A stretch of DNA of 21,121 nucleotides from a virus (taxonomy: Duplodnaviria > Heunggongvirae > Uroviricota > Caudoviricetes). Below, in pieces: positions 165 through 21,121 of the stretch. Below the pieces are notes generated by a model that made no database searches, had not been told where the DNA came from, and saw nothing but the letters and a program-made list of their open reading frames with translations. Within the stretch, counting starts at the first letter, position 1, and every line of letters begins with the position of its first letter. Location of the stretch: positions 1-21,121 of IMG/VR virus record IMGVR_UViG_2778261276_000011; one strand, 5' to 3'. The translations under genes were made by a program, and so were the position numbers.

Positions 165-713
165 ATGAAGGTTAATAAAAAGAAGCTCGCGGAAATTTTC
201 AACGTGGATCCACGAACGATTGAACGCTGGCAGTCTCAGGGGCTCTCTTGTGTCTCTGGTGGTAGTAAGGGGGTTGAATCTGTATTTGATACCGCCATGG
301 CAATTCAGTGGTATGCGCAGCGCGAAGCCGATATTGAAAACGAAAAACTCCGCAAAGAGACCGAGGATTTGCGTGCGGCTGCGGAATCAGATTTACAACC
401 CGGCACCATTGACTATGAGCGCTACCGACTCACAAAAGCACAGGCTGATGCACAGGAACTGAAAAATGCCCGCGAAGAAGGGCTGGTACTGGAAACGGAA
501 TTGTTTACCTTCATTCTGCAACGTGTGGCACAGGAGATTTCGGGGATACTTGTACGTGTGCCGCTGACATTACAGCGTAAATATCCGGATATTTCACCGT
601 CACACCTTGATGTGGTGAAAACTGAAATCGCAAAAGCCTCCAACGTTGCAGCTAAAGCTGGTGAGAACGTAGGCGGGTGGATTGATGATTTCAGACGCAC
701 AGAAGGCAGCTAA
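165..713 (+). CDS. nu1: terminase small subunit (lambda Nu1 family)
   Basis: Translation [27 protein letters not shown]... aligns along its length with lambda gpNu1 (MEVNKKQLADIFGASIRTIQNWQEQGM...). The product is about 182 aa, similar to lambda Nu1. The ATG at 165 is the first ATG in the frame (the ORF track begins at an upstream TTG). The 3' end overlaps the start of A, as in lambda. Confidence 0.9.
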
Positions 714-2601
714 TGCAGCCGGTGCGATAGCAACAGGGCTTGTATCTCTCAATATTCCGGTACCACTGACGACAGTTCAGTGGGCTGATCAGCATTATTA
801 TCTGCCAAAAGAGTCTTCATATACTCCCGGGCAATGGGAAACACTGCCGTTTCAGGTTGCCATCATGAACAGCATGGGGAATGACCGGATCCGCACCGTT
901 AATCTGATTAAATCGGCGCGTGTTGGTTACACCAAAATGCTGTTGGGGGTGGAGGCTTATTTTATTGAACACAAATCCCGTAACAGCCTGCTTTTTCAGC
1001 CGACAGATTCTGCGGCAGAAGATTTTATGAAATCCCATGTCGAACCAACGATAAGAGACGTTCCTGTATTACTGGAGCTGGCTCCGTGGTTTGGCAGAAA
1101 ACATCGGGACAACACGCTTACCCTGAAACGTTTCTCCTCCGGTGTGGGATTCTGGTGTCTGGGCGGAGCTGCTGCCAAAAACTACCGTGAAAAATCTGTG
1201 GATGTGGTCTGCTATGACGAACTCTCCTCGTTTGAACCGGATGTGGAAAAAGAAGGTTCACCAACTCTGCTTGGCGATAAGCGTATCGAAGGTTCGGTAT
1301 GGCCTAAATCCATACGCGGCTCAACGCCCAAAATTAAAGGTTTTTGCCAGATTGAAAAAGCCGCGAACGAATCTGCACATTTTATGCGGTTTTATGTGCC
1401 ATGCCCTCATTGTGGTGAAGCCCAGTATCTGAAGTTTGGCGATGATGCGACAACCTTTGGCCTGAAATGGGAGAAGGGCAAGCCGGAGACGGTGTATTAC
1501 CTGTGTGAACATAATGGCTGCGCGATCCGTCAGTCGGAACTTGACCAGACCGACGGGCGGTGGATTTGTGACAATACCGGGATGTGGACGCGTGACGGTC
1601 TGACATTTTACAGCGCCGGTGATGAGGAAATCCCGCCACCGCGCTCAATCTCGTACCACATCTGGACGGCATACAGCCCGTTCACCACCTGGGTACAGAT
1701 TGTTTATGACTGGCTTGATGCACTGAAGGATCCGAATGGCGTCAAGACGTTCATTAACACCACGCTGGGGGAGCCTTATGAAGAGGCTGTGGCAGAAAAA
1801 CTGAGCTTTGAGTTATTGCTGGAAAAAGTCTGCCACTATGATGCGCAGGTTCCCCTGCGGGTGGTTTACCTGACCGCAGGGATCGACTCTCAGAAAAACC
1901 GTTATGAGATTTATGTCTGGGGCTGGGCTCCTGGCGAAGAAGCTTTTCTGATTGACAAGCAGATCATCATGGGGAGACCGGAAGATGAGGACACCCTTAA
2001 ACGCGTTGATGCCGTGATCCGGAAAAAATACCGTCATGCAGATGGCACTGAAATTTCCATTTCCCGCGTCTGCTGGGATACCGGTGGTATTGACCAGGAC
2101 ATTGTGTATCAGCGATCCAGAAAACACGGCACTTTTTTTGTGCTCCCCATCAAAGGGGCGTCGGTGTACGGCAAGCCGGTGATCACCATGCCAAAAAAGC
2201 GAAACCAGCGTGGGGTGTTTTTGTGTGAGGTGGGTTCCGATACCGTCAAGGAAATGCTGTATGCGCGTTTTGCCCTGCCGGTGGTATCTGCCAGTGAAGT
2301 CGCACCGTATACCTTCCGTTTTCCGGATAACCCGGACATTTTTTCTGATGTTGAAGCTAAACAACTCGTGGCAGAAGAGCTGGTTGAAAAAGTTGTGAAC
2401 GGGCGGGTGAAACTCCAGTGGGATGCCAGAAAACGGCGTAATGAAGCTCTGGACTGTCTGGTGTATGCCTATGCAGCGCTGCGCATTTCCGTTCAGCGGT
2501 GGCAACTGGATCTGGATGCACTGGCCCGCGCCAGAAGAGATGAACAGGACGACGATGAAATGACTATTGAAGAAATCGCGGCTGCTCTGAGTGGAGGATA
2601 A
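685..2601 (+). CDS. A: terminase large subunit (lambda gpA family)
   Basis: The 638-aa product aligns end to end with lambda gpA from memory, with shared blocks such as YYLPKESx[68 protein letters not shown] and RRNEALDC. The start is the ATG at 685; the track's TTG at 682 is one codon upstream. Confidence 0.95.
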
Positions 2602-2604
2602 GTG

Positions 2605-2814
2605 ATGATTTATACGCATGAAATGCTATGCGATGCCCGCCGGGCGTTACATGAACTGATGATCGGACGTGCTGTGGTTTCCGTCAGCAAGGACGGGCGT
2701 CAGGTTCAGTATTCGCGGGCGACAATTGGTGAACTGCGTCAGTATATTGAAGAGCTGGAAAGTGCGCTGGGTGTATCCGGACGGCGTCGTGGCCCGGCAG
2801 GAGTGGGGCTGTGA
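2605..2814 (+). CDS. W: head-tail joining protein (lambda gpW family)
   Basis: The roughly 69-aa product (ARRALHELMIGRAVVSVSKDGRQVQYSRATIGELRQYIEELE...RRRGPAG) parallels lambda gpW ([27 protein letters not shown]...YIAELE...RRRGPAG). It lies directly after A, as in lambda. Confidence 0.85.
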   Translation: MIYTHEMLCDARRALHELMIGRAVVSVSKDGRQVQYSRATIGELRQYIEELESALGVSGRRRGPAGVGL

Positions 2815-3677
2815 ACGGGGAACTGGTGGATATTCATGGGCAGCCTTTACGGCAAAGCATGGGATATTCTGGTGGTGGTTCCGGGTTCGGTGGGCAAATG
2901 GCAGAATGGCTGCCTGCACCGGAAAGTGCCGACGTGGCGCTCTTACCTTCCATTCATCTGGGTAACGCCCGCGCGGATGAGCTGGTCCGTAACAACGGTA
3001 TTGCATCGAATGCAGTGGAAATTCATAAGGATCATATTGTCGGGCACATGTTTCGTCTGAGTTACCGTCCCAACTGGCGCTGGCTGGGGATGTCGGAAGC
3101 AGATTCACATGCTTTTATTGAAGATGTTGAGGCGGCGTGGATGGAATACTGCGATCCGGTGTTTGGTACGATGGATGTGGAAGGGCGTCGTTCGTTTACC
3201 GAATTCATTCGTGAAGGGGTGGGGGTCCATACGTTTAACGGTGAAATTTTTGTCCAGCCCGTATGGGATGCGGAATCCACGTCATTATTCCGGACGAAAT
3301 TCAAAACCATCAGCCCGAAGCGTGTCAGTACACCCGGTTATGGTACCGGCGATCGTTTTATGCGTGCCGGGGTGGAAATAAACCGACACGGAAAAGCGCT
3401 GGCCTACCATGTTCAGGATGATGACTGGCCCGGCTACGGTGTCAGTAAATGGACACGAATTACGGCAACACTGCCTTCCGGACGACCGGGAATGATCCAT
3501 GTGTTTCAGCCACAGGAAGACGGGCAGACCCGCGGGGCCAACCAGTTTTATTCTGTAATGGAGCGTCTCAAGATGCTCGACACACTGCAGGCCACGCAAC
3601 TGCAGTCGGCGGTGGTTCGCGCCATTTATGTCTATTATCTCCCCGTAGTTGTCGCCACCATTCATCAACTCCACTAA
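2811..3677 (+). pseudogene. B: portal protein (lambda gpB family), 3'-truncated: only about the N-terminal 273 codons are portal-like
   Basis: The product aligns with the lambda gpB N-terminal half (GGGSGFGGQ, LLP...GNARAD.LVRNNG, HIVG..FRLS.RP.WR.LG, FNGE.FVQ, HVF.P.EDGQTRGAN.FYSVME..KMLDTLQ.TQLQSA). Similarity stops after ...QSAVVRAIY near 3630, and the frame terminates 15 codons later, whereas lambda gpB is about twice as long. GTG start overlapping the W stop. Confidence 0.85.
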
Positions 3678-3753: not shown

Positions 3754-3807
3754 TGTGTATTGCAATGTGTATTGCAAGTTGGCGTTTGGATGGGGTGTGT
3801 ATTGCAA
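3754..3807 (+). repeat. three direct copies of TGTGTATTGCAA immediately upstream of int (two in tandem at 3754-3777, a third at 3796-3807)
   Basis: Exact 12-bp repeats read directly from the sequence. Their position 20-70 bp upstream of the integrase start suggests arm-type or regulator binding sites. A related ATTGCAA motif recurs at the right end of the element (11110-11148). Confidence 0.6.
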
Positions 3808-3826
3808 ATTGACGTGTAGGCTACAT

Positions 3827-5068
3827 ATGGCTATCGAGAATAAACTGACTGACAAACTTCTGAAAAGTCTTGCAGGTAAGCCGCAGGACAGACAAAAAAT
3901 CATGGCTGATGGGCGGGGGCTATCTGTTCGTGTAAGCGTGGTTGGGGGAATTAGTTTCGTTTTTTACTATCGTATTGGCGGCAGGGATGCCCCTCCGGTA
4001 TGGCTGACCCTTGGGCGTTATCCTGATATGTCTCTGGCAGCCGCCAGGAGATTACGCGACCAGTGCCGTGAATGGCTGGCGGAAAATCTGGATCCTCGCA
4101 GACAAATAAAACTTGTAGCTGAAAAAAACATGCGCCCTGTAACTGTAAGGGATGCGGTGCTTTACTGGTACGATAATCACGCCAGGACAGCCAGAAAGCA
4201 GCATGAGTATTTAATAAAAAGATTTGAAAAGCATATTTTTCCATATATCGGAGATATGGCTATAGAACAGTGCAAATTGCATACCTGGCTTACTGTATTT
4301 GACAGAATTAAAAAAAATGCTCCTGTTATGTCTGGTGCTATTTTTCTTGATATTAAACAGGCGTTACGTTTTTGCCGTATCAGGCAATACATTAGTTGCG
4401 ATCCATTCGGTGATATTAACGTTAGTTATGTTGGACGTTCAGCAGGCATAAGGGATCGTGTTCTGAGTATTAATGAAGCCGCTGACGTATGGTCTTATGC
4501 CTATGGCAACAATTTACTTACCCTTTCATCAATACATAACCGAAGAATTATGGTTATCTGCCTGGTGTTTGGTTGCCGTCAGCAGGAGGCGCGGTTATCC
4601 ACTTGGGAAGAATGGGATTTAAAAAACTGGATTTGGACAGTTCCAAAAGAGCACAGCAAGAACGGCGAGGTTATTGTAAGACCAGTCCCTGATGGAATAA
4701 AACAATGGGTTATTAATCTTTATGCGGAAACAAAGCACCGGGATTGTGTTATCGGTAGATCACTGAAGCGAGCGACAATAACAGGAGCAGCAAGCCGGAT
4801 ATGCAGGCGGCTAGGGCATGATGTAAATGGTCTGTGGTGCATACATGATTTCAGGCGTACATTTTCAACAATGCTTAACGATATGGGTGCCGATCCTTAT
4901 ATTGTAGAGCTTCTGCTTGGTCATAAAGTTAAAGGTGTGGCGGGTGTTTATAATAAAAGCAAGCATGCAAAGAAAAAACTTGAGGTTCTTAATATGTGGG
5001 TTAATTACCTTAACACGATAGCCGGATTTAATAATAACGTTATTGAACTGAGTAAAGAGGTTGTTTGA
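3827..5068 (+). CDS. int: tyrosine site-specific integrase, P4-like family
   Basis: The 413-aa product has an N-terminal arm-binding-type domain (LTDKLLKSL...DGRGLSVRVS..G.ISFVFYYR) and a C-terminal catalytic region with HDFRRT and LLGH...AGVYNKS (H-x-x-R and a Tyr nucleophile). The first ATG at 3827 is taken as start; the ORF track begins at an upstream alternative start. Confidence 0.9.
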   Translation: MAIENKLTDKLLKSLAGKPQDRQKIMADGRGLSVRVSVVGGISFVFYYRIGGRDAPPVWLTLGRYPDMSLAAARRLRDQCREWLAENLDPRRQIKLVAEKNMRPVTVRDAVLYWYDNHARTARKQHEYLIKRFEKHIFPYIGDMAIEQCKLHTWLTVFDRIKKNAPVMSGAIFLDIKQALRFCRIRQYISCDPFGDINVSYVGRSAGIRDRVLSINEAADVWSYAYGNNLLTLSSIHNRRIMVICLVFGCRQQEARLSTWEEWDLKNWIWTVPKEHSKNGEVIVRPVPDGIKQWVINLYAETKHRDCVIGRSLKRATITGAASRICRRLGHDVNGLWCIHDFRRTFSTMLNDMGADPYIVELLLGHKVKGVAGVYNKSKHAKKKLEVLNMWVNYLNTIAGFNNNVIELSKEVV

Positions 5069-5069
5069 T

Positions 5070-5327
5070 ATGTCAGTTTATTCACTTGTTGATGAAAAAG
5101 ATTTTACTGCAATGCCGGATATTGATCGTGTCATTCGTGAAAAAGAATGCGTGGCACTTACTACGCTGGCAAATTCAACACGCTGGAAACTGGAAAAGAC
5201 AGGTAAGTTCCCAAAACGTATTAAGATTGGTGAACGTGCCGCTGGCTATCGTCTCTCGGAGATTCAGGCGTGGATCCGTGGCGATTGGCACCCAGGATGG
5301 AAACCGGAAAAAACAAAACAGCAATAA
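5070..5327 (+). CDS. alpA: AlpA-family phage transcriptional regulator (small HTH protein)
   Basis: The roughly 85-aa product carries the AlpA-like motif IDRVIREKECVALTTLANSTRWKLEKTGKFPKRIKIGERAAGYRLSEIQAWI. It starts 2 nt after the int stop, the classic int-alpA arrangement of P4-like elements and enterobacterial PICIs. Confidence 0.8.
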   Translation: MSVYSLVDEKDFTAMPDIDRVIREKECVALTTLANSTRWKLEKTGKFPKRIKIGERAAGYRLSEIQAWIRGDWHPGWKPEKTKQQ

Positions 5328-5386: not shown

Positions 5387-5965
5387 ATGAATAAAAATAT
5401 TGCCGTGACGGGCAAAGGTGACGCTCGTCTAGTAAAAAAATTCTGTGATATTCGTGATCTGGTCGTTCTGCGCTTTGATGGTGTGAACGTTCGCGTGGTG
5501 TATCTGAACGGCGATCCGTGGTTTGTTGCAGTTGACGTGTGCGCTGCGCTGGAAATTGTTGATCACAAGGTTGCGTTACGCCGTCTCGATGATGATGAAA
5601 AGGGGGAGTGTTTAATACCCACCCTTGGCGGAAATCAAACAATGCGAACTGTATGCGAGTCAGGTTTCTACAAACTAATAGCCCGTAGCCGCAAAGCAAC
5701 GACGCCTGGCACGTTCGCCCATCGTTTCAGTAACTGGGTATTCAGAAATGTGATACCGGGTATCAGAAAAACGGGGGCTTATGGTATCCCGTGGGGCGCA
5801 TTACAGGATTTTTCCCGCCGTAAAGAGCAATATCAGATAAGTGCCAGCGAGAAGGGGAGGGAGCTACAGGCATGTAAGCGCAAAAAGCGTGAGCTGGAGG
5901 AAGAAGAAAAAAGGCTGATACGTGAATATCAGCCTGAGTTTTACTTTGGTGAGCGTATTCAGTAA
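5387..5965 (+). CDS. Bro-N domain protein (antirepressor-like) with a charged coiled-coil C-terminus
   Basis: The N-terminal region F..VNVRVVYLNGDPWFVAVDVCAALEI...RRLDDDEK...GG.Q....V.ESGFYKLI.RSRK....F..WV...VIPGIRKTGAYG matches the Bro-N consensus. RBS GAGG upstream; C-terminal KRKKRELEEEEKRL. Confidence 0.75.
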   Translation: MNKNIAVTGKGDARLVKKFCDIRDLVVLRFDGVNVRVVYLNGDPWFVAVDVCAALEIVDHKVALRRLDDDEKGECLIPTLGGNQTMRTVCESGFYKLIARSRKATTPGTFAHRFSNWVFRNVIPGIRKTGAYGIPWGALQDFSRRKEQYQISASEKGRELQACKRKKRELEEEEKRLIREYQPEFYFGERIQ

Positions 5966-6122
5966 CCACTCGCAGTGCTGATTATACGGTACATCGTGTT
6001 AACCGGGAAGCTACCCACCAGCAAGGCAAAATCTTCTGCTAAAAAATGATATATGGTCAGCCGTCCGGAAAGCATGAAATTTTACAAAAATGGAAAATGA
6101 AGATTTTTATTGTGCTGGTGGG

Positions 6123-6154
6123 TAAAAACAAAAAGCGCCCCGTTGCCGGAGCGC
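6123..6154 (-). terminator. rho-independent terminator, leftward-reading
   Basis: On the minus strand a 7-bp stem GCGCTCC / GGGGCGC (one G.U pair) with a 6-nt loop is followed by TTTTTGTTTTT. It may also act weakly on plus-strand transcripts from the Bro-N gene. Confidence 0.55.
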
Positions 6155-6248
6155 CTTTGTGAACAATTAACCTACTGCGCAAAAAATGAATCTGAGCAGT
6201 GGGATTATATCAACCGTGTGACGAAGCGCCACAATTGCCGGATAACAG

Positions 6249-6278
6249 GCAAAACAAAGGCCACCCGCTACGGTGGCC
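6249..6278 (-). terminator. rho-independent terminator, leftward-reading, at the end of the leftward cassette
   Basis: Perfect 7-bp stem GGCCACC / GGTGGCC with loop CGCTAC; on the minus strand it is followed by TTTGTTTTG. Confidence 0.6.
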
Positions 6279-6396
6279 CTTCAACACAAGCTACACGTTA
6301 TCCCCAACGCATGAGCATCACCAACAATGCCACATTTGCGGCTGGTGGGCAAAGCTTTAGCGGAATTTTTTCCCTGTTGCCTGGAGTGGGTAATGA

Positions 6397-6579
6397 TTAC
6401 TTGTATCGCTTATTCCTGCACAAAACAGGGCTGCTCTTTTTGATGAAATCCTCAAGCAAAAAACACTCTGTTGATGCTCTTGGTAATTCTCTGGTGGAAG
6501 GATGGGGTTTTATCCCCCATTTTCGTTTACGTTCTTCCAGAAAGGAGGTGAGTATATCTAGTTTCTGTGCGTCCATCAT
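6397..6579 (-). CDS. hypothetical small protein (60 aa), third ORF of the leftward cassette; coding status uncertain
   Basis: ORF in the same frame as the two upstream leftward ORFs. Only a weak RBS is present, and a plus-strand terminator-like hairpin (6502-6528) lies inside it, so this may instead be non-coding. Confidence 0.3.
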   Translation of the reverse strand: MMDAQKLDILTSFLEERKRKWGIKPHPSTRELPRASTECFLLEDFIKKSSPVLCRNKRYK

Positions 6580-6599
6580 TTTTCTCTTGGATACTTCTT

Positions 6600-6650
6600 T
6601 GTGCCATGGATCCTCACACCACGGCGCTGATAGTGGTTATTTCTGCTCTT
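6600..6650 (-). repeat. copy A of a roughly 50-bp intergenic repeat
   Basis: About 80% identical to 6851-6905, with a core CACCACGGCGCTG shared exactly. It spans the stop codon and downstream spacer of the 6637-6834 ORF. The two copies are 255 bp apart, a multiple of 3. Confidence 0.6.
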
Positions 6651-6834
6651 CAACATCACCATGTCGTGATGTTTTCCAAGTATGCGACCCCATTTTTGTG
6701 CGCCTGTACTCTTTTAAGAACTTCTCAAGGCCAAACGCACATGGCGCGAATCTCTCCTGTTCTTGTTCGCTTACCGCGTTTTTGCGTTGTTTTTTCCTGG
6801 ATGAAGATAATTTCTTTAATGATTTGTCAGTCAT
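6637..6834 (-). CDS. hypothetical small basic protein (65 aa), second ORF of the leftward cassette
   Basis: ATG preceded by AGGT about 8 nt upstream. The product MTDKSLKKLSSSRKKQRKNAV... is lysine/arginine-rich. No family recognised. Confidence 0.35.
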   Translation of the reverse strand: MTDKSLKKLSSSRKKQRKNAVSEQEQERFAPCAFGLEKFLKEYRRTKMGSHTWKTSRHGDVEEQK

Positions 6835-6850
6835 CGTAGATACCTGTAAC

Positions 6851-6905
6851 CCAGTGCGCCACAGTTCACCGCACCACGGCGCTGGTGATGGTTACTCCTG
6901 CTCTT
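6851..6905 (-). repeat. copy B of the roughly 50-bp intergenic repeat
   Basis: See copy A. It spans the stop codon and downstream spacer of the RHH gene and contains the small palindrome CACCA-N6-TGGTG. Confidence 0.6.
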
Positions 6906-7071
6906 TGGCCTTGCGACGCTGGCGGCGTTTGATCTCGCCTTGCATTGACGCAATGATGAATTGTGATGTGCTTTCGCCTGATTCTTTCACTGATTCCATG
7001 GCGTTTACTATTTCGTGTGGTACACGAGCCTTTAGAGCTTGTGATTTTGCGTTTGTTGTACCCGTTGCCAT
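6892..7071 (-). CDS. ribbon-helix-helix (Arc/MetJ/CopG-like) DNA-binding protein, candidate repressor of the element
   Basis: The 59-aa product MATGTTNAKSQALKARVPHEIVNAMESVKESGESTSQFIIASMQGEIKRRQRRKAKEQE parallels the beta-strand/helix/helix layout of P22 Arc. GAGG RBS 7 nt upstream. It is divergently transcribed from the rightward operon across an operator-bearing intergenic region. Confidence 0.55.
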   Translation of the reverse strand: MATGTTNAKSQALKARVPHEIVNAMESVKESGESTSQFIIASMQGEIKRRQRRKAKEQE

Positions 7072-7099
7072 TTCTATTCCTCTGGTGGATTGGTGGGGA

Positions 7100-7180
7100 A
7101 CAGTATACACAGAAAAAACACAAATAAAACTCTTGACGTGGACCACACCTAAAACATATAGTGGGCCACACCTTAAAATT
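7100..7180. promoter_or_regulatory. divergent promoter region with direct-repeat operators
   Basis: Rightward: TTGACG (7133-7138), 18 bp spacer, TATAGT (7157-7162). Leftward: a -10-like TATACT on the minus strand about 30 bp upstream of the RHH start. Two direct repeats, TGGACCACACCTAAAA (7139-7154) and TGGGCCACACCTTAAAA (7162-7178), flank the rightward -10. Confidence 0.5.
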
Positions 7181-7270
7181 ATCAAGGCGCATAAATGCAA
7201 AGCCCCGCAAGTGTCGTTACCACTCGCAGGGCTTCTAACCACCAACGATAGAAAGAGTATCGAGGTAGCT

Positions 7271-7474
7271 ATGAGAAATCATACCACACACCCGCAAGGG
7301 CGGGACTCGCACAACCTGAATAAATACATCTGGCGTTTTATCGCCCTGAGCACGGCACAACCGCGCGTGATTACCATCGAGGCCACCAGCGAACAGGAAG
7401 CACGCCAGCAATCTCCGGCTGGCTGCGTGATGGTATTCGCCGCCCGTATTCGCCAGGAGGTGCGCCATGATTAA
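7271..7474 (+). CDS. small protein (67 aa), possibly Icd-like (host cell division inhibitor family of P4-like elements)
   Basis: GAGG RBS. Its TAA stop overlaps the next gene's ATG region. The motif YIWRFIALSTAQPRVITIEATSEQEARQQ...VFAARIRQ resembles Icd-like proteins as I recall them; not verified. Confidence 0.45.
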   Translation: MRNHTTHPQGRDSHNLNKYIWRFIALSTAQPRVITIEATSEQEARQQSPAGCVMVFAARIRQEVRHD

Positions 7475-7679
7475 CCTGTCACTTACCGACCTTAACCGCA
7501 TTCAGTTTCGTGAGAAATTTACCGGGCAGTTGTTGGTTAATGTGGATAAAGGTCGCGTGGTGTGTAATTACCACCTGCCAGATGAAGCAATTGTCGCAAC
7601 AAGGGAATCATTACAGGAACTCGCAGAGCGTGCCGGAATGATTAACGCGAATATTCAGGGGGTGAGACATGTGCAATAA
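7467..7679 (+). CDS. hypothetical protein (70 aa), operon member
   Basis: Strong RBS AGGAGGTG; start overlaps the upstream stop; compact head-to-tail operon. Confidence 0.6.
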   Translation: MINLSLTDLNRIQFREKFTGQLLVNVDKGRVVCNYHLPDEAIVATRESLQELAERAGMINANIQGVRHVQ

Positions 7680-7911
7680 CCCCCGTCCGGACGCAGCCGC
7701 CGAAGCTATCAGAACGCTGATGCACGCGCTGATTGATATTTCATGCACGGCAGCAACCGCAGAAAAACACATTACCATAGAGCCGGAATATACAGGGGCA
7801 ATAATCCCGCATTCGCTGGCATACGCACAGCTTACCGCTGATATGGCACTGAATGAGGCCAAAGCTATCCTGATTGCTGATTGTGAAAATGGGGGGGGTG
7901 GTTATGCGTGA
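7669..7911 (+). CDS. hypothetical protein (80 aa), operon member
   Basis: RBS GGGGGTGAG; start overlaps the upstream gene by 11 nt. Confidence 0.6.
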   Translation: MCNNPRPDAAAEAIRTLMHALIDISCTAATAEKHITIEPEYTGAIIPHSLAYAQLTADMALNEAKAILIADCENGGGGYA

Positions 7912-8137
7912 TGATCGTTTTAATGCCCTGAAACAGGAATTTGATGGCGCACCGGAAGATACAGATATTGCGCTGTTATGTGTTGCTGACATGGTAAAAG
8001 CTGCATGTTTTTTACTGGAAACCGCCGAACATTCAGGAACGGGTAGCGATATTCTCAATATTGCGTCGGACTATGCGGAATATGTGGCAGAGACGCGTTA
8101 CAGAAGTAAATTCCCGGAGGGGGTGAGCCATGCATGA
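7904..8137 (+). CDS. hypothetical acidic protein (77 aa), operon member
   Basis: ATG at 7904 preceded by GGGGGGGTGG; overlaps the upstream stop by 8 nt. The ORF track's earlier start at 7874 is a non-ATG codon. Confidence 0.55.
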   Translation: MRDDRFNALKQEFDGAPEDTDIALLCVADMVKAACFLLETAEHSGTGSDILNIASDYAEYVAETRYRSKFPEGVSHA

Positions 8138-11210: not shown

Positions 11211-11417
11211 ATGGGAACACAGAAGCCGGGCGGTGTATCCGTGTACATCAGCCCCGATATTATCGCCGCACTTAATGCGCGCTTTGAGGAGAACGCAGAG
11301 GCAGGAAAAAAAATCGGCCTTGATCCGTTGTGCCTGGTGAAGCCGTCAGTCGGCTGGATGGTACGCAGCGATTTACGCGCTGCGCTTGGTATGAATCAGC
11401 CTCATGGGGGTAAGTAA
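11211..11417 (+). CDS. hypothetical small protein (68 aa) translationally coupled to the capsid gene remnant
   Basis: RBS AAGAGGAA. Its stop overlaps the E start (TAATG). It sits where lambda has D but does not resemble lambda gpD. It is unclear whether this belongs to the prophage or the element. Confidence 0.45.
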   Translation: MGTQKPGGVSVYISPDIIAALNARFEENAEAGKKIGLDPLCLVKPSVGWMVRSDLRAALGMNQPHGGK

Positions 11418-12046
11418 TGACAGCGCCGCAACTGGTAAGCACACCAACGCTACTGAAAAATATCGGGCGCGAAGATGTGCCGGAATTTAAATTTAATCCA
11501 CTCTTTACTACGTTGTTCTTTCCGAACGTCGCTACTTTCAGCACCAGAGATATTGCACTTGATACGCTGGATATTGAAAACGTGGTCATGAGTCCGTTTT
11601 GTTCTCCAATGTCAGGCAGCCAGGTTATGCGTGACAAAGGTTTCACAACGAACACGTTCACGCCGGGTTATATGAAGCCCAAACACGTTATTGATCCCAC
11701 CAAAACAATCATGCGCATGGCTGGAGAACAGATCGGCAATGGTCAGTCTTCCCCGGCACTACGCCGCGTAAAAATGGTTCACGACAGCCAGAAAAAACAG
11801 CTTGCTGCCATCAAAGCGCGTGTTGAATGGCTGGCGGTCAATGCCATCACAACAGGCCGTAACGTTATTGAAGGCGAAGGCATTGAGCGTTATGAAATTG
11901 ACTGGGGATTACCCGCAACCAATCATATTACGCAGGCTGGCGGGAAAGAATGGTCAAAACAGGATGCCGAAACGTTTGATCCGATAAGCGACATTGAGGC
12001 TTACGCTGATTTTTCCAAAGGTACGGTATCCGGCAGGAAACACTGA
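11417..12046 (+). pseudogene. E: major capsid protein (lambda gpE family), N-terminal fragment of about 196 codons
   Basis: The product matches the lambda gpE N-terminal half (FKF.PLF..LFF, FTPGY.KPKH, ITQ.GG.EWSK.D..T.DP..DIEAYA). Homology ends after DIEAYA (about 12006) and the frame stops at 12046, whereas lambda gpE is much longer. Confidence 0.85.
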
Positions 12047-12717
12047 ATGAATGTACCCGTACGGAGCAGTCTGCCAGCCTGGTACTCTGGGAAATTGATC
12101 TGACAGAGATTGGCGGGGAGCGTTATTTTTTCAGTAATGAGCCTAACGAGAAGGGGGAGGCCGTCACCTGGCAGGGCCGGAAATATGAGGTGTATCCTGT
12201 TCAGGGAGCAGGGTTTGAAATGAAAGGCAAGGGAAGCAGCGCCCGCCCCACCCTGACGGTGTCCAACCTGTACGGGATGGTTACCGGGATGGTGGAGGAT
12301 TTACAGAGTCTGGCTGGCGGAACGGTGATCCGGCGTAAGGTTTACGCCCGTTTTCTGGATGCGGTGAATTTTACTAACGGAAACAGTGAAGCCGATCCGG
12401 AACAGGAGGTGATCAGTTACTGGCGTATTGAACAGTGCAGCGATCTGACGGCGGTGACGGCAACGTTTGTTCTGGCCTCGCCAGCGGAGACAGACGGTGC
12501 GGTTTTCCCGGGACGTACCATGCTGGCCAATACCTGTACCTGGACCTATCGCGGTGATGAGTGCGGTTATCACGGTCCGGCTGTCGCGGATGAATATGAC
12601 CAGCCGACGTCTGATATCACGAAGGATAAATGCAGTAAATGCCTGAGTGGCTGTAAGTCACGTCATAACGTCGGTAACTTTGGCGGTTTCCTTTCCATCA
12701 ATAAACTTTCGCAGTAA
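12028..12717 (+). pseudogene. L: tail tip protein (lambda gpL family), start codon lost at a deletion junction
   Basis: From 12028 the frame translates to IRQETLNECTRTEQSASLVLWEIDLTEIGGERYFF..., matching lambda gpL from residue 4 (MQDIRQETLNEC...) to the C-terminus (...GNFGGFLSINKLSQ). There is an in-frame stop at 12007-12009 and no ATG before the internal GTG at 12190. Confidence 0.8.
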
Positions 12718-12721
12718 ATCC

Positions 12722-13465
12722 ATGACAGAGACTGAATCAGTGATTCTGGCGCACGCCCGGCGATGTGCGCCAGCGGAGTCGTGCGGCTTCGTGGTGAGAA
12801 CGCCGGAGGGGGAAAGGTATCTTCCCTGCGTGAATATCTCCGGTACTCCGGAGGCGTGTTTCCGGATGGTACCGGAAGACTGGCTGCGGGCACAAATACA
12901 GGGCGAGGTGGTGGCGCTGGTCCACAGCCATCCCGGTGGTCTGCCCTGGCTGAGTGAAGCCGACCGTCAGCTGCAGGTACAGAGTGATTTGCCGTGGTGG
13001 CTGGTCTGTCGGGGGGCTCTCCATAAATTCCGCTGCGTGCCACATCTGACCGGAAGGCGCTTTGATCACGGGGTGACGGACTGTTACACGCTGTTCCGGG
13101 ACGCTTATCATCTGGCAGGAATTGAGATACCGGATTTTCATCGTGAGGATGACTGGTGGCGTAACGGTCAGAATCTTTACCTGGACAACATGGCAGATAC
13201 AGGCTTTTACCCGGTCACCCTGTCAGCGGCGCAGCCGGGCGATGTGTTGCTGTGCTGCTTTGGTTCATCGGTGCCGAATCATGCCGCCATTTACTGTGGT
13301 GACGGCGAGCTGCTGCACCATATTCCTGAACAACTGAGTAAACGAGAGAGGTATACAGAAAAATGGCAGCGACGCACACACTCCCTCTGGCGGCACCGGG
13401 CATGGCACGCCTCTGCCTTTACGGGGATTTGCAACGATTTGGCCGCCGCATCGACCTTCGTGTGA
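12722..13465 (+). CDS. K: tail tip assembly protein (lambda gpK family; NlpC/P60-like / JAB-type)
   Basis: Begins MTETESVILAHARRCAPAESCGFVV... (lambda K begins MTQTESAILAHARRC..., as recalled). ATG at 12722, 4 nt after the L stop. The frame stays open to 13465 and overlaps the I start by about 100 nt in another frame, so the true 3' end is uncertain. Confidence 0.75.
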   Translation: MTETESVILAHARRCAPAESCGFVVRTPEGERYLPCVNISGTPEACFRMVPEDWLRAQIQGEVVALVHSHPGGLPWLSEADRQLQVQSDLPWWLVCRGALHKFRCVPHLTGRRFDHGVTDCYTLFRDAYHLAGIEIPDFHREDDWWRNGQNLYLDNMADTGFYPVTLSAAQPGDVLLCCFGSSVPNHAAIYCGDGELLHHIPEQLSKRERYTEKWQRRTHSLWRHRAWHASAFTGICNDLAAASTFV

Positions 13466-14010
13466 AAACGGGGGCTGAAGCCATCCGGGCGCTGGCCACA
13501 CAACTTCCGTCGTTTCGTCAGAAACTGAGTGACGGCTGGTATCAGGTACGTATCGCCGGGCGGGATGTCAGCGAGTCCGGGGTAACGGCACAGCTCCATG
13601 AGCCGTTACCGGACGGTGCGGTGATCCACATTGTTCCCCGGCTTGCCGGTGCAAAGCATGGCGGAATTTTTCAGACCATCCTGGGTGCTGTGGTTGTTGC
13701 GGTAGCCTGGTGGAACCCCGCGGGCTGGCTGGGTGCGGCAGCACTTACGGGGATGTATGCCGCCGGGGCCAGTATGATCCTCGGCGGGATAGCGCAGATG
13801 CTGACACCGGCCATCAAAACGCCGTCCATGGAGTCCGCGGATAACGGCAAACAGAACACCTTTTTTTCCTCGCTGGATAATATGATCGCCCAGGGGAATC
13901 CGTTACCGGTACTGTATGGTGAGATGCGTGTGGGGTCGCGTGTGATTTCACAGAGTATCAGTACTGCTGATGAGGGTGATGGTGGTCAGGTTGTGGTGAT
14001 TGGTCGCTGA
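13363..14010 (+). CDS. I: tail tip assembly protein (lambda gpI family)
   Basis: MAATHTLPLAAPGMARLCLYGDLQRFGRRIDLRVKTGAEAIRALATQLP... and the C-terminal ...YGEMRVGSRVISQSISTADEGDGGQVVVIGR match lambda gpI as recalled. Confidence 0.9.
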   Translation: MAATHTLPLAAPGMARLCLYGDLQRFGRRIDLRVKTGAEAIRALATQLPSFRQKLSDGWYQVRIAGRDVSESGVTAQLHEPLPDGAVIHIVPRLAGAKHGGIFQTILGAVVVAVAWWNPAGWLGAAALTGMYAAGASMILGGIAQMLTPAIKTPSMESADNGKQNTFFSSLDNMIAQGNPLPVLYGEMRVGSRVISQSISTADEGDGGQVVVIGR

Positions 14011-14030
14011 TGTAAAACGTTTTATGTGAA

Positions 14031-14055
14031 ACCGCCTGCGGGCGGTTTTGTTGTT
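14031..14055 (+). terminator. hairpin plus T-run between I and J (possible attenuator or terminator)
   Basis: AACCGCC-TGCG-GGCGGTT followed by TTGTTGTT, about 15 nt upstream of the J start. Confidence 0.4.
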
Positions 14056-14070
14056 AATGGAGCCAGATAA

Positions 14071-17000
14071 ATGGGTAAAGGTGGCAGCAAGGGGCACACT
14101 CCTCGCGAAGCGAAAGATAACCTGAAATCCACGCAGTTACTGAGCGTGATTGATGCGATCAGTGAAGGGCCGATTGAAGGTCCGGTGGATGGCTTAAAAA
14201 GCGTGCTGCTGAACAGTACGCCGGTGCTGGACACTGAGGGGAATACCAACATATCCGGTGTCACGGTGGTGTTCCGGGCTGGTGAGCAGGAGCAGACTCC
14301 GCCGGAGGGATTTGAATCCTCCGGCTCCGAGACGGTGCTGGGTACGGAAGTGAAATATGACACGCCGATCACCCGCACCATTACGTCTGCAAACATCGAC
14401 CGTCTGCGCTTTACCTTCGGTGTACAGGCACTGGTGGAAACCACCTCAAAGGGTGACAGGAATCCGTCGGAAGTCCGCCTGCTGGTTCAGATACAACGTA
14501 ACGGTGGCTGGGTGACGGAAAAAGACATCACCATTAAGGGCAAAACCACCTCGCAGTATCTGGCCTCGGTGGTGATGGGTAACCTGCCGCCGCGCCCGTT
14601 TAATATCCGGATGCGCAGGATGACGCCGGACAGCACCACAGACCAGCTGCAGAACAAAACGCTCTGGTCGTCATACACTGAAATCATCGATGTGAAACAG
14701 TGCTACCCGAACACGGCACTGGTCGGCGTGCAGGTGGACTCGGAGCAGTTCGGCAGCCAGCAGGTGAGCCGTAATTATCATCTGCGCGGGCGTATTCTGC
14801 AGGTGCCGTCGAACTATAACCCGCAGACGCGGCAATACAGCGGTATCTGGGACGGAACGTTTAAACCGGCATACAGCAACAACATGGCCTGGTGTCTGTG
14901 GGATATGCTGACCCATCCGCGCTACGGCATGGGGAAACGTCTTGGTGCGGCGGATGTGGATAAATGGGCGCTGTATGTCATCGGCCAGTACTGCGACCAG
15001 TCGGTGCCGGATGGCTTTGGCGGCACGGAGCCGCGCATCACCTGTAATGCGTACCTGACCACACAGCGCAAGGCGTGGGATGTGCTCAGTGATTTTTGCT
15101 CGGCGATGCGCTGTATGCCGGTATGGAACGGGCAGACGCTGACATTCGTGCAGGACCGGCCGTCGGATAAGGTGTGGACCTATAACCGCAGTAATGTGGT
15201 GATGCCGGATGATGGCGCGCCGTTCCGCTACAGCTTCAGCGCCCTGAAGGACCGCCATAATGCCGTTGAGGTGAACTGGATTGACCCGAACAACGGCTGG
15301 GAGACGGCGACAGAGCTTGTGGAGGACACGCAGGCCATTGCCCGTTACGGTCGTAACGTCACGAAGATGGATGCCTTTGGCTGTACCAGCCGGGGGCAGG
15401 CACACCGCGCCGGGCTGTGGCTGATTAAAACGGAACTGCTGGAAACGCAGACCGTGGATTTCAGCGTGGGTGCTGAAGGGCTTCGCCATGTACCGGGCGA
15501 TGTTATTGAAATCTGTGATGATGACTATGCCGGTATCAGCACCGGTGGTCGTGTACTGGCGGTGAACAGCCAGACCCGGACGCTGACGCTCGACCGTGAA
15601 ATCACGCTGCCATCCTCCGGTACCACGCTGATAAGCCTGGTTGACGGAAGTGGCAATCCGGTCAGCGTGGAGGTTCAGTCCGTCACCGACGGCGTGAAGG
15701 TAAAAGTGAGCCGTGTTCCTGACGGTGTTGCTGAATACAGCGTATGGGGGCTGAAGCTGCCGACGCTGCGCCAGCGACTGTTCCGCTGCGTGAGTATCCG
15801 TGAGAACGACGACGGCACGTATGCCATCACCGCCGTGCAGCATGTGCCGGAAAAAGAGGCCATCGTGGATAACGGGGCGCACTTTGACGGCGAACAGAGT
15901 GGCACGGTGAATGGTGTCACGCCGCCAGCGGTGCAGCACCTGACCGCAGAAGTCACTGCAGACAGCGGGGAATATCAGGTGCTGGCGCGCTGGGACACGC
16001 CGAAGGTGGTGAAGGGCGTGAGCTTCCTGCTTCGCCTGACCGTGGCAGCGGATGACGGCAGTGAGCGGCTGGTCAGCACGGCCCGGACGACGGAAACCAC
16101 ATACCGCTTCAGGCAGCTGGCGCTGGGGCGGTACACGCTGACAGTCCGGGCAGTAAATGCCTGGGGGCAGCAGGGAGACCCGGCGTCGGTATCGTTCCGG
16201 ATTGCCGCACCGGCAGCACCGTCGAGGATTGAGCTGACGCCGGGCTATTTTCAGATAACCGCCACGCCGCATCTTGCCGTTTATGACCCGACGGTACAGT
16301 TTGAGTTCTGGTTCTCGGAAAAGCAGATTGCGGATATCAGACAGGTTGAAACCAGCGCGCGTTATCTTGGTACGGCGCTGTACTGGATAGCCGCCAGTAT
16401 CAATATCAAACCGGGCCATGATTATTACTTTTATATCCGCAGTGTGAACACCGTTGGCAAATCGGCATTCGTGGAGGCCGTCGGTCGGGCGAGCGATGAT
16501 GCGGAAGGTTACCTGGATTTTTTCAAAGGCAAGATAACCGAATCCCATCTCGGCAAGGAGCTGCTGGAAAAAGTCGAGCTGACGGAGGATAACGCCAGCA
16601 GACTGGAGGAGTTTTCGAAAGAGTGGAAGGACGCCAACGATAAGTGGAATGCCATGTGGGCTGTCAAAATTGAGCAGACCAAAGACGGCAAACATTATGT
16701 CGCGGGTATTGGCCTCAGCATGGAGGACACGGAGGAAGGCAAACTGAGCCAGTTTCTGGTTGCCGCCAATCGTATCGCGTTTATTGACCCGGCAAACGGG
16801 AATGAAACGCCGATGTTTGTGGCGCAGGGCAACCAGATATTCATGAACGACGTGTTCCTGAAGCGCCTGACGGCCCCCACCATTACCAGCGGCGGCAATC
16901 CTCCGGCCTTTTCCCTGACACCGGACGGAAAGCTGACCGCTAAAAATGCGGATATCAGTGGCAGTGTGAATGCGAACTCCGGGACGCTCAGTAATGTGAC

Positions 17001-17469
17001 GATAGCTGAAAACTGTACGATAAACGGTACGCTGAGGGCGGAAAAAATCGTCGGGGACATTGTAAAGGCGGCGAGCGCGGCTTTTCCGCGCCAGCGTGAA
17101 AGCAGTGTGGACTGGCCGTCAGGTACCCGTACTGTCACCGTGACCGATGACCATCCTTTTGATCGCCAGATAGTGGTGCTTCCGCTGACGTTTCGCGGAA
17201 GTAAGCGTACTGTCAGCGGCAGGACAACGTATTCGATGTGTTATCTGAAAGTACTGATGAACGGTGCGGTGATTTATGATGGCGCGGCGAACGAGGCGGT
17301 ACAGGTGTTCTCCCGTATTGTTGACATGCCAGCGGGTCGGGGAAACGTGATCCTGACGTTCACGCTTACGTCCACACGGCATTCGGCAGATATTCCGCCG
17401 GATACGTTTGCCAGCGATGTGCAGGTTATGGTGATTAAGAAACAGGCGCTGGGCATCAGCGTGGTCTGA
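14071..17469 (+). CDS. J: tail tip central fibre / host specificity protein (lambda gpJ family)
   Basis: The 1132-aa ORF begins [42 protein letters not shown]..., which matches the lambda J N-terminus as recalled. The length is the same as lambda J. Confidence 0.95.
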
Positions 17470-17530
17470 GTGTGTTACAGAGGTTCGTCCGGGAACGGGC
17501 GTTTTATTATAAAACAGTGAGAGGTGAACG

Positions 17531-18151
17531 ATGCGTAATGTGTGTATTGCCGTTGCTGTCTTTGCCGCACTTGCGGTGACAGTCACTCCGGCCCGTGCGG
17601 AAGGTGGACATGGTACGTTTACGGTGGGCTATTTTCAGGTGAAACCGGGTACATTGCCGTCGTTGTCGGGCGGGGATACCGGTGTGAGTCATCTGAAAGG
17701 GATTAACGTGAAGTACCGTTATGAGCTGACGGACAGTGTGGGGGTGATGGCTTCCCTGGGGTTCGCCGCGTCGAAAAAGAGCAGCACAGTGATGACCGGG
17801 GAGGATACGTTTCACTATGAGAGCCTGCGTGGACGTTATGTGAGCGTGATGGCCGGACCGGTTTTACAAATCAGTAAGCAGGTCAGTGCGTACGCCATGG
17901 CCGGAGTGGCTCACAGTCGGTGGTCCGGCAGTACAAGGGATTACCGTAAGACGGAAATCACTCCCGGGTATATGAAAGAGACGACCACCGCCAGGGACGA
18001 AAGTGCAATGCGGCATACCTCAGTGGCGTGGAGTGCAGGTATACAGATTAATCCGGCAGCGTCCGTCGTTGTTGATATTGCTTATGAAGGCTCCGGCAGT
18101 GGCGACTGGCGTACTGACGGATTCATCGTTGGGGTCGGTTATAAATTCTGA
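17531..18151 (+). CDS. lom: outer-membrane beta-barrel protein Lom (Ail/Lom/PagC family)
   Basis: The 206-aa product has a signal peptide (MRNVCIAVAVFAALAVTVTPARA) and a C-terminal ...GVGYKF beta-barrel terminus. It sits in the lambda lom position between J and stf. RBS GAGAGGTGAA. Confidence 0.9.
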   Translation: MRNVCIAVAVFAALAVTVTPARAEGGHGTFTVGYFQVKPGTLPSLSGGDTGVSHLKGINVKYRYELTDSVGVMASLGFAASKKSSTVMTGEDTFHYESLRGRYVSVMAGPVLQISKQVSAYAMAGVAHSRWSGSTRDYRKTEITPGYMKETTTARDESAMRHTSVAWSAGIQINPAASVVVDIAYEGSGSGDWRTDGFIVGVGYKF

Positions 18152-18176
18152 TTAGCCAGGTAACACAGTGTTATGA

Positions 18177-18208
18177 CAGCCCGCCGGAACCGGTGGGCTT
18201 TTTTGTGG
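18177..18208 (+). terminator. rho-independent terminator downstream of lom
   Basis: Stem GCCCGCCGG / CCGGTGGGC (one G.U pair) followed by TTTTTTGTG. Confidence 0.7.
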
Positions 18209-18215
18209 GGTGAAT

Positions 18216-20540: not shown

Positions 20541-21121
20541 TGGCATTCAGAATGAGTGAACAACCACGGACCATAAAAATTTATAATCTGCTGGCCGGAA
20601 CTAATGAATTTATTGGTGAAGGTGACGCATATATTCCGCCTCATACCGGTCTGCCTGCAAACAGTACCGATATTGCACCGCCAGATATTCCGGCTGGCTT
20701 TGTGGCTGTTTTCAACAGTGATGAGGCATCGTGGCATCTCGTTGAAGACCATCGGGGTAAAACCGTCTATGACGTGGCTTCCGGCGACGCGTTATTTATT
20801 TCTGAACTCGGTCCGTTACCGGAAAATTTTACCTGGTTATCGCCGGGAGGGGAATATCAGAAGTGGAACGGCACAGCCTGGGTGAAGGATACGGAAGCAG
20901 AAAAACTGTTCCGGATCCGGGAGGCGGAAGAAACAAAAAAAAGCCTGATGCAGGTAGCCAGTGAGCATATTGCGCCGCTTCAGGATGCTGCAGATCTGGA
21001 AATTGCAACGGAGGAAGAAACCTCGTTGCTGGAAGCCTGGAAGAAGTATCGGGTATTGCTGAACCGTGTTGATACATCAACTGCACCTGATATTGAGTGG
21101 CCGACTTCACCTGCAGAGTAA
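20540..21121 (+). CDS. tfa: tail fibre assembly protein (lambda Tfa family)
   Basis: [44 protein letters not shown]... matches lambda Tfa as recalled. The ATG overlaps the stf stop (TAATG), and the stop codon is at the last three bases of the window. Confidence 0.9.

Follow-up and report, generated by a model that had tools for sequence, protein, structure and literature searches.

The window analysed here is a 21,121-nucleotide stretch of Caudoviricetes DNA (positions 1 to 21,121 of IMG/VR record IMGVR_UViG_2778261276_000011), and our subject is its regulatory region around positions 7,100-7,180. This region separates a leftward gene for a small ribbon-helix-helix (RHH) protein from a rightward operon that begins with an Icd-like gene. 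An original prediction, made from the letters of the sequence, had placed there a promoter with paired repeats, in the layout of a repressor-controlled switch. Following comparison with related loci, we find it very likely that the region is the early regulatory switch, repressor-controlled, of a Gram-negative phage-inducible chromosomal island (PICI). On the strength of sequence comparisons, we put at about 75% the probability that the RHH protein binds three sites, O1 to O3, and represses the rightward promoter.

The rightward promoter, its repeats and the RHH gene

The near-consensus rightward promoter of the original prediction was recovered by a promoter scan, with TTGACG as -35 hexamer (7133-7138, plus strand), a spacer of 18 nt and TATAGT as -10 hexamer (7157-7162, plus strand), that is, 10 matches out of 12 to the consensus. 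This promoter, called P_R below, was the sole promoter-like site that the consensus scan called within 6300-8000. In shuffled sequences, 2.2 matches of P_R quality are expected per region, for 1 observed. Such a match is therefore not unusual by chance, and the case for P_R rests on its conservation in related loci.

The two repeat copies announced on either side of the -10 were present as well, as GTGGACCACAC (7138-7148) and GTGGGCCACAC (7161-7171), both read on the plus strand. Within them, TGGACCACACCT (7139-7150) and TGGGCCACACCT (7162-7173) are the only exact TGGRCCACACCT matches in the window, and a repeat search extended the pair to 22 nt, with 82% identity and a distance of 23 nt. The left copy, candidate operator O2, abuts the -35 and occupies the spacer, its extended repeat reaching 7159. 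The right copy, candidate operator O3, overlaps the end of the -10, on whose final base its exact match begins, and the expected transcription start, its extended repeat reaching 7182. Both had been described as direct repeats. Repeat copies they are, but they are better seen as 11-bp quasi-palindromes of the form (G/C)TG-N5-CA(C/G), one of which is inverted in some relatives.

A third site, O1 (GTGGGGAACAG, 7093-7103, plus strand), had been overlooked. So had the palindromy of the sites and two features to which we return below, the structure in the leader and the long P4 eta-like frame that encloses the region. O1 is degenerate in the window, where it has 2 core mismatches, and near-perfect in relatives. 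It overlaps the start region of the leftward transcript and is presumed to be a site of autoregulation. It shares bases, too, with a conserved CAGTATAC. On the minus strand this is TATACT (7102-7107), the candidate -10, without a clear -35, of the leftward promoter of the RHH gene; this element was kept across loci of different operator classes. Two more operator-like 11-mers, each with 1 mismatch, were noticed, one at 7015-7025 (minus strand), where it corresponds to RVPH codons of the RHH gene itself, and one at 6854-6864 (plus strand), in the spacer downstream of that gene.

The RHH gene (6892-7071, minus strand) encodes a repressor candidate of 59 aa. It stands on the strand opposite to P_R, as had been stated; its distance, formerly given as about 30 bp, could be refined to 61 nt between its ATG and the -35, or 29 nt between the ATG and the 7100 edge. 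The protein matched the YlcI/YnfO family (NCBIfam NF041551) with 67.4 bits for a cut-off of 30, over residues 9-50. Its AlphaFold model, which has a pLDDT (predicted local distance difference test) of 88, consists of an extended N-terminus and two helices, i.e. the beta-alpha-alpha fold of the RHH (Arc/MetJ/CopG) superfamily. The segment KSQALKARVP...GESTSQF also fits the RHH pattern, with a strand of alternating exposed and buried residues followed, where helix 2 begins, by a G-x-S/T-x-S turn. Arc contacts DNA through residues Q9, N11 and R13. As the hhalign alignment brings KSQALKARVP, the strand, into register with residues 6-29 of Arc, these three residues correspond to A12, K14 and R16, the predicted DNA-reading residues of the protein studied here. 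Sub-threshold Pfam matches were obtained with CB_ParB_C (3×10−4), Arc (0.012), RHH_5 (0.15), HicB-like and Rv0623-like models, plus unrelated families, and a profile search of PDB sequences gave no match.

Two relatives of the protein deserve mention. K-12 YlcI, the namesake of the family (L039, DLP12, 6252-6446), is RHH-like and transcribed away from cos/nohD at the right end of a lambdoid prophage. In E. coli Nissle 1917 (L040, 6782-7087), the RHH protein has 101 aa, with a C-terminal extension, and is accompanied by TGTAAG-type operators, as in some islands. This extension might be a sensor or oligomerisation domain.

Operator geometry and covariation with the RHH strand

Comparing operators among homologous elements had been proposed as a check on the initial reading. 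For this, 27 loci were collected from one-genome-per-species contigs by RHH alignment, and others by exact-protein look-ups and from E. coli records. They came from Escherichia, Enterobacter, Serratia, Pectobacterium, Yersinia, Xenorhabdus, Proteus, Gilliamella and others. About 38 homologous loci had an intact region, 35 of which were scored by script and 3 read by eye, and the three sites were found in them at fixed positions relative to both promoters. A TTGA(C/A)N motif lies directly before the repeat, at the same position, in every one of these intact loci, and O2 begins on its last base. Counted from the start of the -35, the sites start at -40 (O1), +5 (O2) and +27 to +30, sometimes +40 (O3). 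Nearly every locus has its O1 copy 45 bp to the left of O2, with a core that matches the O2 and O3 of the same locus; O3 is 22-25 bp right of O2 (35 bp in some loci) and covers the end of the -10. One site copy, O3 in some cases, is inverted in certain loci (L034, L036, L035 and L045), which fits recognition by a symmetric dimer.

The closest comparison is EcCICFT073, a Gram-negative PICI that encodes an identical RHH protein (WP_000190587.1, C_RS30120) and has a near-identical promoter/operator region, including an O1 with 2 core mismatches as in the window. Locus tags suggest that the small genes of EcCICFT073 were annotated later than the original annotation. Downstream of the RHH gene, a small basic protein is encoded in the window (6637-6834, minus strand; phrog_21027), and has a homologue at the same position in EcCICFT073 (C_RS30800; L042 9243-9416). 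It is absent from many related islands, and gave no match to a family of known function in Pfam, NCBIfam or PHROGs.

This arrangement raises the question of a type II toxin-antitoxin pair, in which RHH and the downstream small gene would autoregulate their own promoter, the overlap with P_R being incidental. The structural neighbours of the RHH protein include the antitoxins CopA-SO, VapB, HicB, TacA and MazE9, and in the window and EcCICFT073 the small gene does follow on the same strand. Against this, the RHH gene is alone in many loci (L029, L034 and L036 among them), two of the three sites lie on the rightward promoter rather than on that of RHH in every locus, and the downstream protein matches no toxin family in the three databases. 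We consider such a pair highly improbable and rejected it, given how often the RHH gene stands alone.

The three site cores agree within each element and differ between elements, and about 12 classes were distinguished on the central 5 bp. Each class was compared to residues 11-14 of the RHH protein, which lie on the predicted DNA-reading strand. Strands QALK and QSLK, the former being that of the window, go with operator GTGGRCCACAC, KKLE and RKLE with GTGGCTGACAC, and QKLQ and QKVQ with GTGGA(G/A/T)TCCAC (for QKLQ, GTGGAGTCCAC). The operator is GTGGGTGCCAG for QKMS, GTGTCCGACAC for KRFD, GTGTGTTTCAC for QLFT, GTGTATTTCAC for QMTT, TGTTCGACAC for QNIA, GTGGGTAACAC for QKLA and GTGGGAGTCAC for RQKT. 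Finally, QSLT is found with sites of the TGTAAG type.

In a partial Mantel test, operator distance was correlated with strand distance given the rest of the RHH protein (r = 0.44, p = 2×10−4), and the converse control, with the rest of the protein given the strand, yielded r = 0.07 (p = 0.25). Since the loci share descent, such covariation statistics are inflated, and mosaic loci are the stronger control. One mosaic (L029, E. coli CP028739) has a KKLE strand joined to a C-terminal half identical to that of the window, and carries GTGGCTGACAC at all three sites. Its Icd-like gene is near-identical to that of the window, and its AlpA is 100% identical to the EcCICFT073 AlpA. In a Pectobacterium locus (L017), strand and operator are common with Xenorhabdus elements, and the rest of the RHH protein differs. 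Four out-of-sample E. coli loci were fetched after the strand-operator rule had been framed. Three of them had known strand classes, with operators that matched, and the fourth was the new class QMTT, with self-consistent operators.

We conclude that RHH is very probably the protein reading the O1-O3 sites. That it would dimerise and bind the operator through paired strands is supported indirectly, by the covariation of residues 11-14 with the operator cores. Fixed sites, cores that covary with the RHH strand, and the fit of mosaic and out-of-sample loci together give computational support to the repressor-operator reading of the original prediction.

The repeats could also be bound by another protein, such as AlpA, the Icd-like/Eta product, the small basic protein or a helper-phage factor. 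AlpA-family proteins do bind DNA near promoters, and PHROGs gives Icd-like families the label "transcriptional repressor" (7271-7474 in the window; L038 8168-8584 in P4). However, AlpA and the operators disagree: AlpA is identical in L029 and EcCICFT073 despite different operators, and 42% identical between the window and EcCICFT073 despite agreeing ones. Icd-like types do not follow operator types either. AlpA and the Icd-like protein were therefore ruled out as site binders, as neither tracks operator class. The PHROGs label most likely traces to an obsolete P4 "cI gene product" annotation, and for this reason we did not use it; the CI immunity factor of P4 is an RNA lying inside that open reading frame (ORF). 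Many loci have the operators but lack the small basic gene, and the operator cores track the RHH beta-strand specifically. Binding by one of these other proteins is improbable in our view.

Leader, long open frame and the surrounding island

Downstream of P_R, the leader of the transcript is structured. HP1 is a short 5′-proximal hairpin (7171-7187, plus strand; CCTT...AAGG in the window) with a stem of 6-8 bp in relatives, as read from aligned sequences. A second element (7200-7241, plus strand) is made of hairpin HP2 (7200-7234), with a fold z-score of -2.8, followed by a nearly invariant UCUAACCA (7234-7241). Covariation in the leader supports it: 90.7% of cells were paired and 14 of the 16 pairs had compensatory changes, which none of 500 shuffles reached, and slide controls were far lower. 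Hairpin HP3 (7246-7262, plus strand), beside the ribosome-binding site of the Icd-like gene, was paired at 97%, with compensatory changes in 4 of its 5 pairs.

An Rfam search of the window, under gathering and permissive thresholds, found no known RNA in the leader; a match to the R1162 antisense RNA, with 21.7 bits versus 55, was treated as chance. Immunity of the P4/P1 type, that is, a C4 RNA with target repeats between the promoter and kil/icd, was not found. C4 and isrK RNAs gave no match in the window at the gathering threshold, none at E ≤ 10 in 6300-7700, and none in 20 RHH-bearing related loci totalling 138 kb. P4, the positive control, scored 74.9 bits for C4 (CI RNA) and 60.8 bits for isrK (seqA). 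That the leader might be a diverged C4/CI RNA was unsupported by the covariance model and was rejected. The absence of the P4 immunity RNAs, CI/C4 and seqA/isrK, means that a protein repressor appears to do the job of the P4 RNA. An int-alpA RNA motif (RF02996 of Rfam) was seen between integrase and alpA in two related loci (L002, 6893-6961, and L023, 6519-6587), and was not detected in the window.

The Icd-like gene (7271-7474, plus strand, 67 aa) is the first gene of the replication operon and a homologue of P4 Kil (NCBIfam NF033153, 69.9 bits). Between its product and the C-terminal region of the P4 "cI" ORF, i.e. eta/kil, similarity is weak (E = 0.14). Searches of phage databases gave no match for the DNA of the region or the RHH protein, and the Icd-like protein matched a single record, a 16.5-kb "induced prophage".

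The Icd-like gene is continuous with a long stop-free, Eta-like frame (6101-7474, plus strand; ORF 6110-7474, 454 codons). This frame stays open 1170 nt upstream of the Icd-like ATG, runs antisense to all three leftward genes, and passes through leader, promoter and operators, so that the promoter is nested in a long ORF in frame with a Kil/Icd-like gene. Over the ~190-nt spacer and the RHH antisense, the Icd-like frame had no stop in 24 of 33 loci, for 1 and 0 of 33 with the two other frames, which average 4-7 stops in the spacer. Spacer lengths in open loci were 175, 187, 190, 193, 196 and 199, all 1 mod 3. With mononucleotide shuffles, the probability of finding no stop, for the spacer alone, was 0.008-0.03 per lineage. 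In EcCICFT073, the open frame starts directly after alpA, and in P4 the kil frame, which includes the promoter PLE, is open over 456 nt, as far as the end of the alpA homologue vis. Between lineages the register of the frame with respect to UCUAACCA changes, and the extension shows no conservation of its amino acids. Translatability of the long frame seems to be what is preserved.

The likeness of the repeats could in principle be a by-product of coding or RNA constraint in the long frame or the leader, without protein sites. The whole region does lie in a stop-free frame, and the right flank of O3 is the 5′ arm of HP1. But O1 and O2 precede the point where rightward transcription starts, copies are found in both orientations, and site cores are identical within each element although the amino acids of the long frame are not conserved. 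We give this explanation hardly any credit.

The genes around the switch place it in an island. On its left, a terminase gpA/TerL gene (682-2601) and a lambda-type portal gene cut at 288 aa (2811-3677) are followed by a co-oriented P4-type integrase gene (3755-5068). Next come alpA (5112-5327, plus strand; Pfam Phage_AlpA, 54.9 bits), the activator needed for Gram-negative PICI induction (PMC6092414), and a Bro-N/antirepressor-like gene (5387-5965), and then the three small leftward genes. The rightward operon consists of the Icd-like gene, small ORFs, and genes for DUF4222, an AAA_25 helicase and SSB. Downstream of the operon are a capsid-E fragment and then the lambda tail genes L, K, I, J, lom, stf and tfa.

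The features that characterise Gram-negative PICIs of the EcCICFT073 type are all present: a P4-type integrase, alpA, a replication module and genes mostly in one direction. TerL and a truncated portal directly upstream of the integrase, with tail genes downstream, correspond to the helper-embedded PICI as defined by Tommasini et al. 2023 (PMC10111431). The window is thus described as a PICI lodged within a lambdoid prophage, whose flanks are at 682-3677 on the left and 11417-21121 on the right, where the capsid-E fragment lies close to an N-terminally truncated tail gene L. From this junction, the right end of the island may be deleted, and it seems that many head and tail genes were lost with it. 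Among 5426 complete E. coli genomes, the 1.4-kb regulatory stretch matched 1673, and its RHH-plus-operator part 705.

Other observations concern this neighbourhood. A 51-nt repeat, 76% identical, occurs at 6600-6650 and 6855-6905, each time over the 3′ end and downstream spacer of one of two consecutive leftward genes. It contains a small hairpin (CACCA...TGGTG) and hints at cassettes that are duplicated or modular. At the portal-integrase junction (3754-3815), TGTGTATTGCAA occurs three times and could represent attL or arm-type recombinase sites; the integrase probably starts further downstream than the listed GTG. Inside the leftward gene 6397-6579, a hairpin that resembles a terminator and has a T-run (6499-6523, plus strand) could limit read-through from alpA and bro towards the switch. 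Finally, a full-length match to Rfam IS009 (223.7 bits, 20883-21081, plus strand) lies inside an ORF (20540-21121) that follows the presumed tail-fibre ORF.

The proposed switch and its relation to known systems

In the switch that we propose, RHH dimers would bind three 11-bp quasi-palindromic operators. O2, which occupies the spacer next to the -35, and O3, which covers the last part of the -10 together with the start site, would block RNA polymerase at P_R, the promoter predicted to drive the operon from the Icd-like gene through DUF4222 and the helicase to SSB. O1, over the start of the RHH transcript, would let RHH repress its own gene. Jointly, strand residues 11-14 and the five central base pairs of each operator have split into at least 12 specificity (immunity) classes. 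With less assurance, we suggest that transcription driven by AlpA from upstream, and translation through the long frame, may override or switch off the repressor during induction. By analogy with P4, and more speculatively, transcripts from upstream might express the operon despite the repressor and, being convergent, hinder expression of RHH.

Besides the shared descent that inflates the covariation statistics, several points weigh against this scheme. Every RHH model of Pfam stayed below threshold with the RHH protein, and a Foldseek search with it returned no match. The leftward promoter was not called by the consensus promoter scan, and consists of a -10-like element alone. With 2 core mismatches in O1, in the window as in EcCICFT073, autoregulation may be weak. 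The island seems to have lost its right end in this copy, which may be inactive. Lastly, Fillol-Salom et al. reported that EcCICFT073 requires AlpA in order to excise and replicate, and that expressing AlpA is enough to bring both about (PMC6092414). Published induction is explained by AlpA alone, so that RHH may be a modulator rather than a master switch.

This last point leads to a different role for RHH at the same sites. It could act there as a tuning or copy-control factor resembling CopG or omega, or as a factor of superinfection immunity between islands, with induction decided by AlpA only. RHH proteins such as CopG and omega are indeed copy-number regulators, and a large number of specificity classes is typical of immunity determinants. 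The island in which AlpA was found necessary and sufficient (PMC6092414) carries the identical RHH and near-identical operators. Nevertheless, the operators sit directly on the sole recognisable promoter of the replication operon, and the dependence on AlpA is equally compatible with upstream read-through overriding a repressed promoter, as in P4. We regard a tuning or immunity role of this kind as possible, yet rather unlikely, and keep repression of P_R by RHH as the preferred reading. A wider proposal can be made only tentatively: the YlcI/YnfO RHH protein would be the missing repressor of Gram-negative PICIs, EcCICFT073 included, the Eta-like frame, transcribed and translated under helper-triggered AlpA, would flip the switch by expressing the replication operon and silencing the convergent repressor gene, and a dozen or more heteroimmune classes would follow a simple RHH recognition code.

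Among known systems, P4 is the nearest. The operon is homologous, with a Kil/Icd-like first gene and then replication genes; the early promoter is nested in a long frame, in phase with kil, whose beginning follows closely on the alpA/vis homologue; the integrase is of the P4 type, and an AlpA-family regulator is found upstream. P_R corresponds in position to PLE, which lies inside eta/kil in P4, a nested arrangement summarised in PMC10111431. The two differ in the repressor: P4 uses a processed CI RNA (Rfam C4), whose pairing with seqA/seqC (isrK) causes premature termination (PMC10111431), whereas the window has an antisense-nested RHH gene and three promoter operators instead of immunity RNAs.

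The original prediction had likened the layout to SaPI (Staphylococcus aureus pathogenicity island) Stl/Str and to Arc/Mnt of P22. As an analogy of layout this stands; the fold is common with Arc/Mnt, and not with Stl. Stl proteins are larger helix-turn-helix repressors, unrelated to RHH, and they are relieved by direct binding of a helper protein. As with Stl (Rpr), the repressor gene points away from the operon with which a satellite excises and replicates, and the presumed logic is that of an element silent until a helper arrives (PMC6092414). The established trigger for EcCICFT073-type islands is, in contrast, activation by AlpA. With P22 immI (Mnt/Arc, Pant/Pmnt), no sequence relationship was detectable beyond the RHH fold. 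Three sites ~23 and 45 bp apart are found here, for one 21-bp tetramer site in P22, and the controlled operon is one of replication, where that of P22 encodes the antirepressor. P_R does not control the island's own Bro-N/Ant-like gene (5387-5965). The omega (pSM19035) and CopG (pMV158) proteins have the RHH fold, repress replication-related promoters, and place one dimer on each short repeat, direct or inverted (from the description of PDB 2bnw and general knowledge). Their sites are contiguous 7-bp heptads, and those of this phage satellite are spaced 11-bp quasi-palindromes.

An RHH repressor with promoter-overlapping operators is of a well-known kind. The setting is new as far as we know: the early promoter of a Gram-negative PICI, a repressor gene antisense in an Eta-like frame, a protein in place of the P4 RNA, and at least 12 classes. 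Tommasini et al. described the island zones, and C4/isrK RNAs in some islands, and did not mention the RHH module (PMC10111431). The founding Gram-negative PICI paper stated that the existence of a repressor was unclear. We found no description of this RHH module, or of any Gram-negative PICI repressor, in the searchable open-access literature.

Gram-negative PICIs are common, and transfer virulence and anti-phage genes. Their published control model holds only the activator AlpA, a gap that a repressor-operator pair would fill, and the switch hypothesis is directly testable in the existing EcCICFT073 model system. If true, it would give the uncharacterised YlcI/YnfO family its first function. 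The matched sets of strand residues and operator cores form a natural data set for RHH-DNA recognition, and a source of orthogonal small repressors for engineering. Different immunity classes would explain, if the hypothesis holds, how related islands coexist in one cell. In comparison with P4, one conserved operon layout would have an RNA as its regulator in the P4 lineage, and a protein in the lineage studied here.

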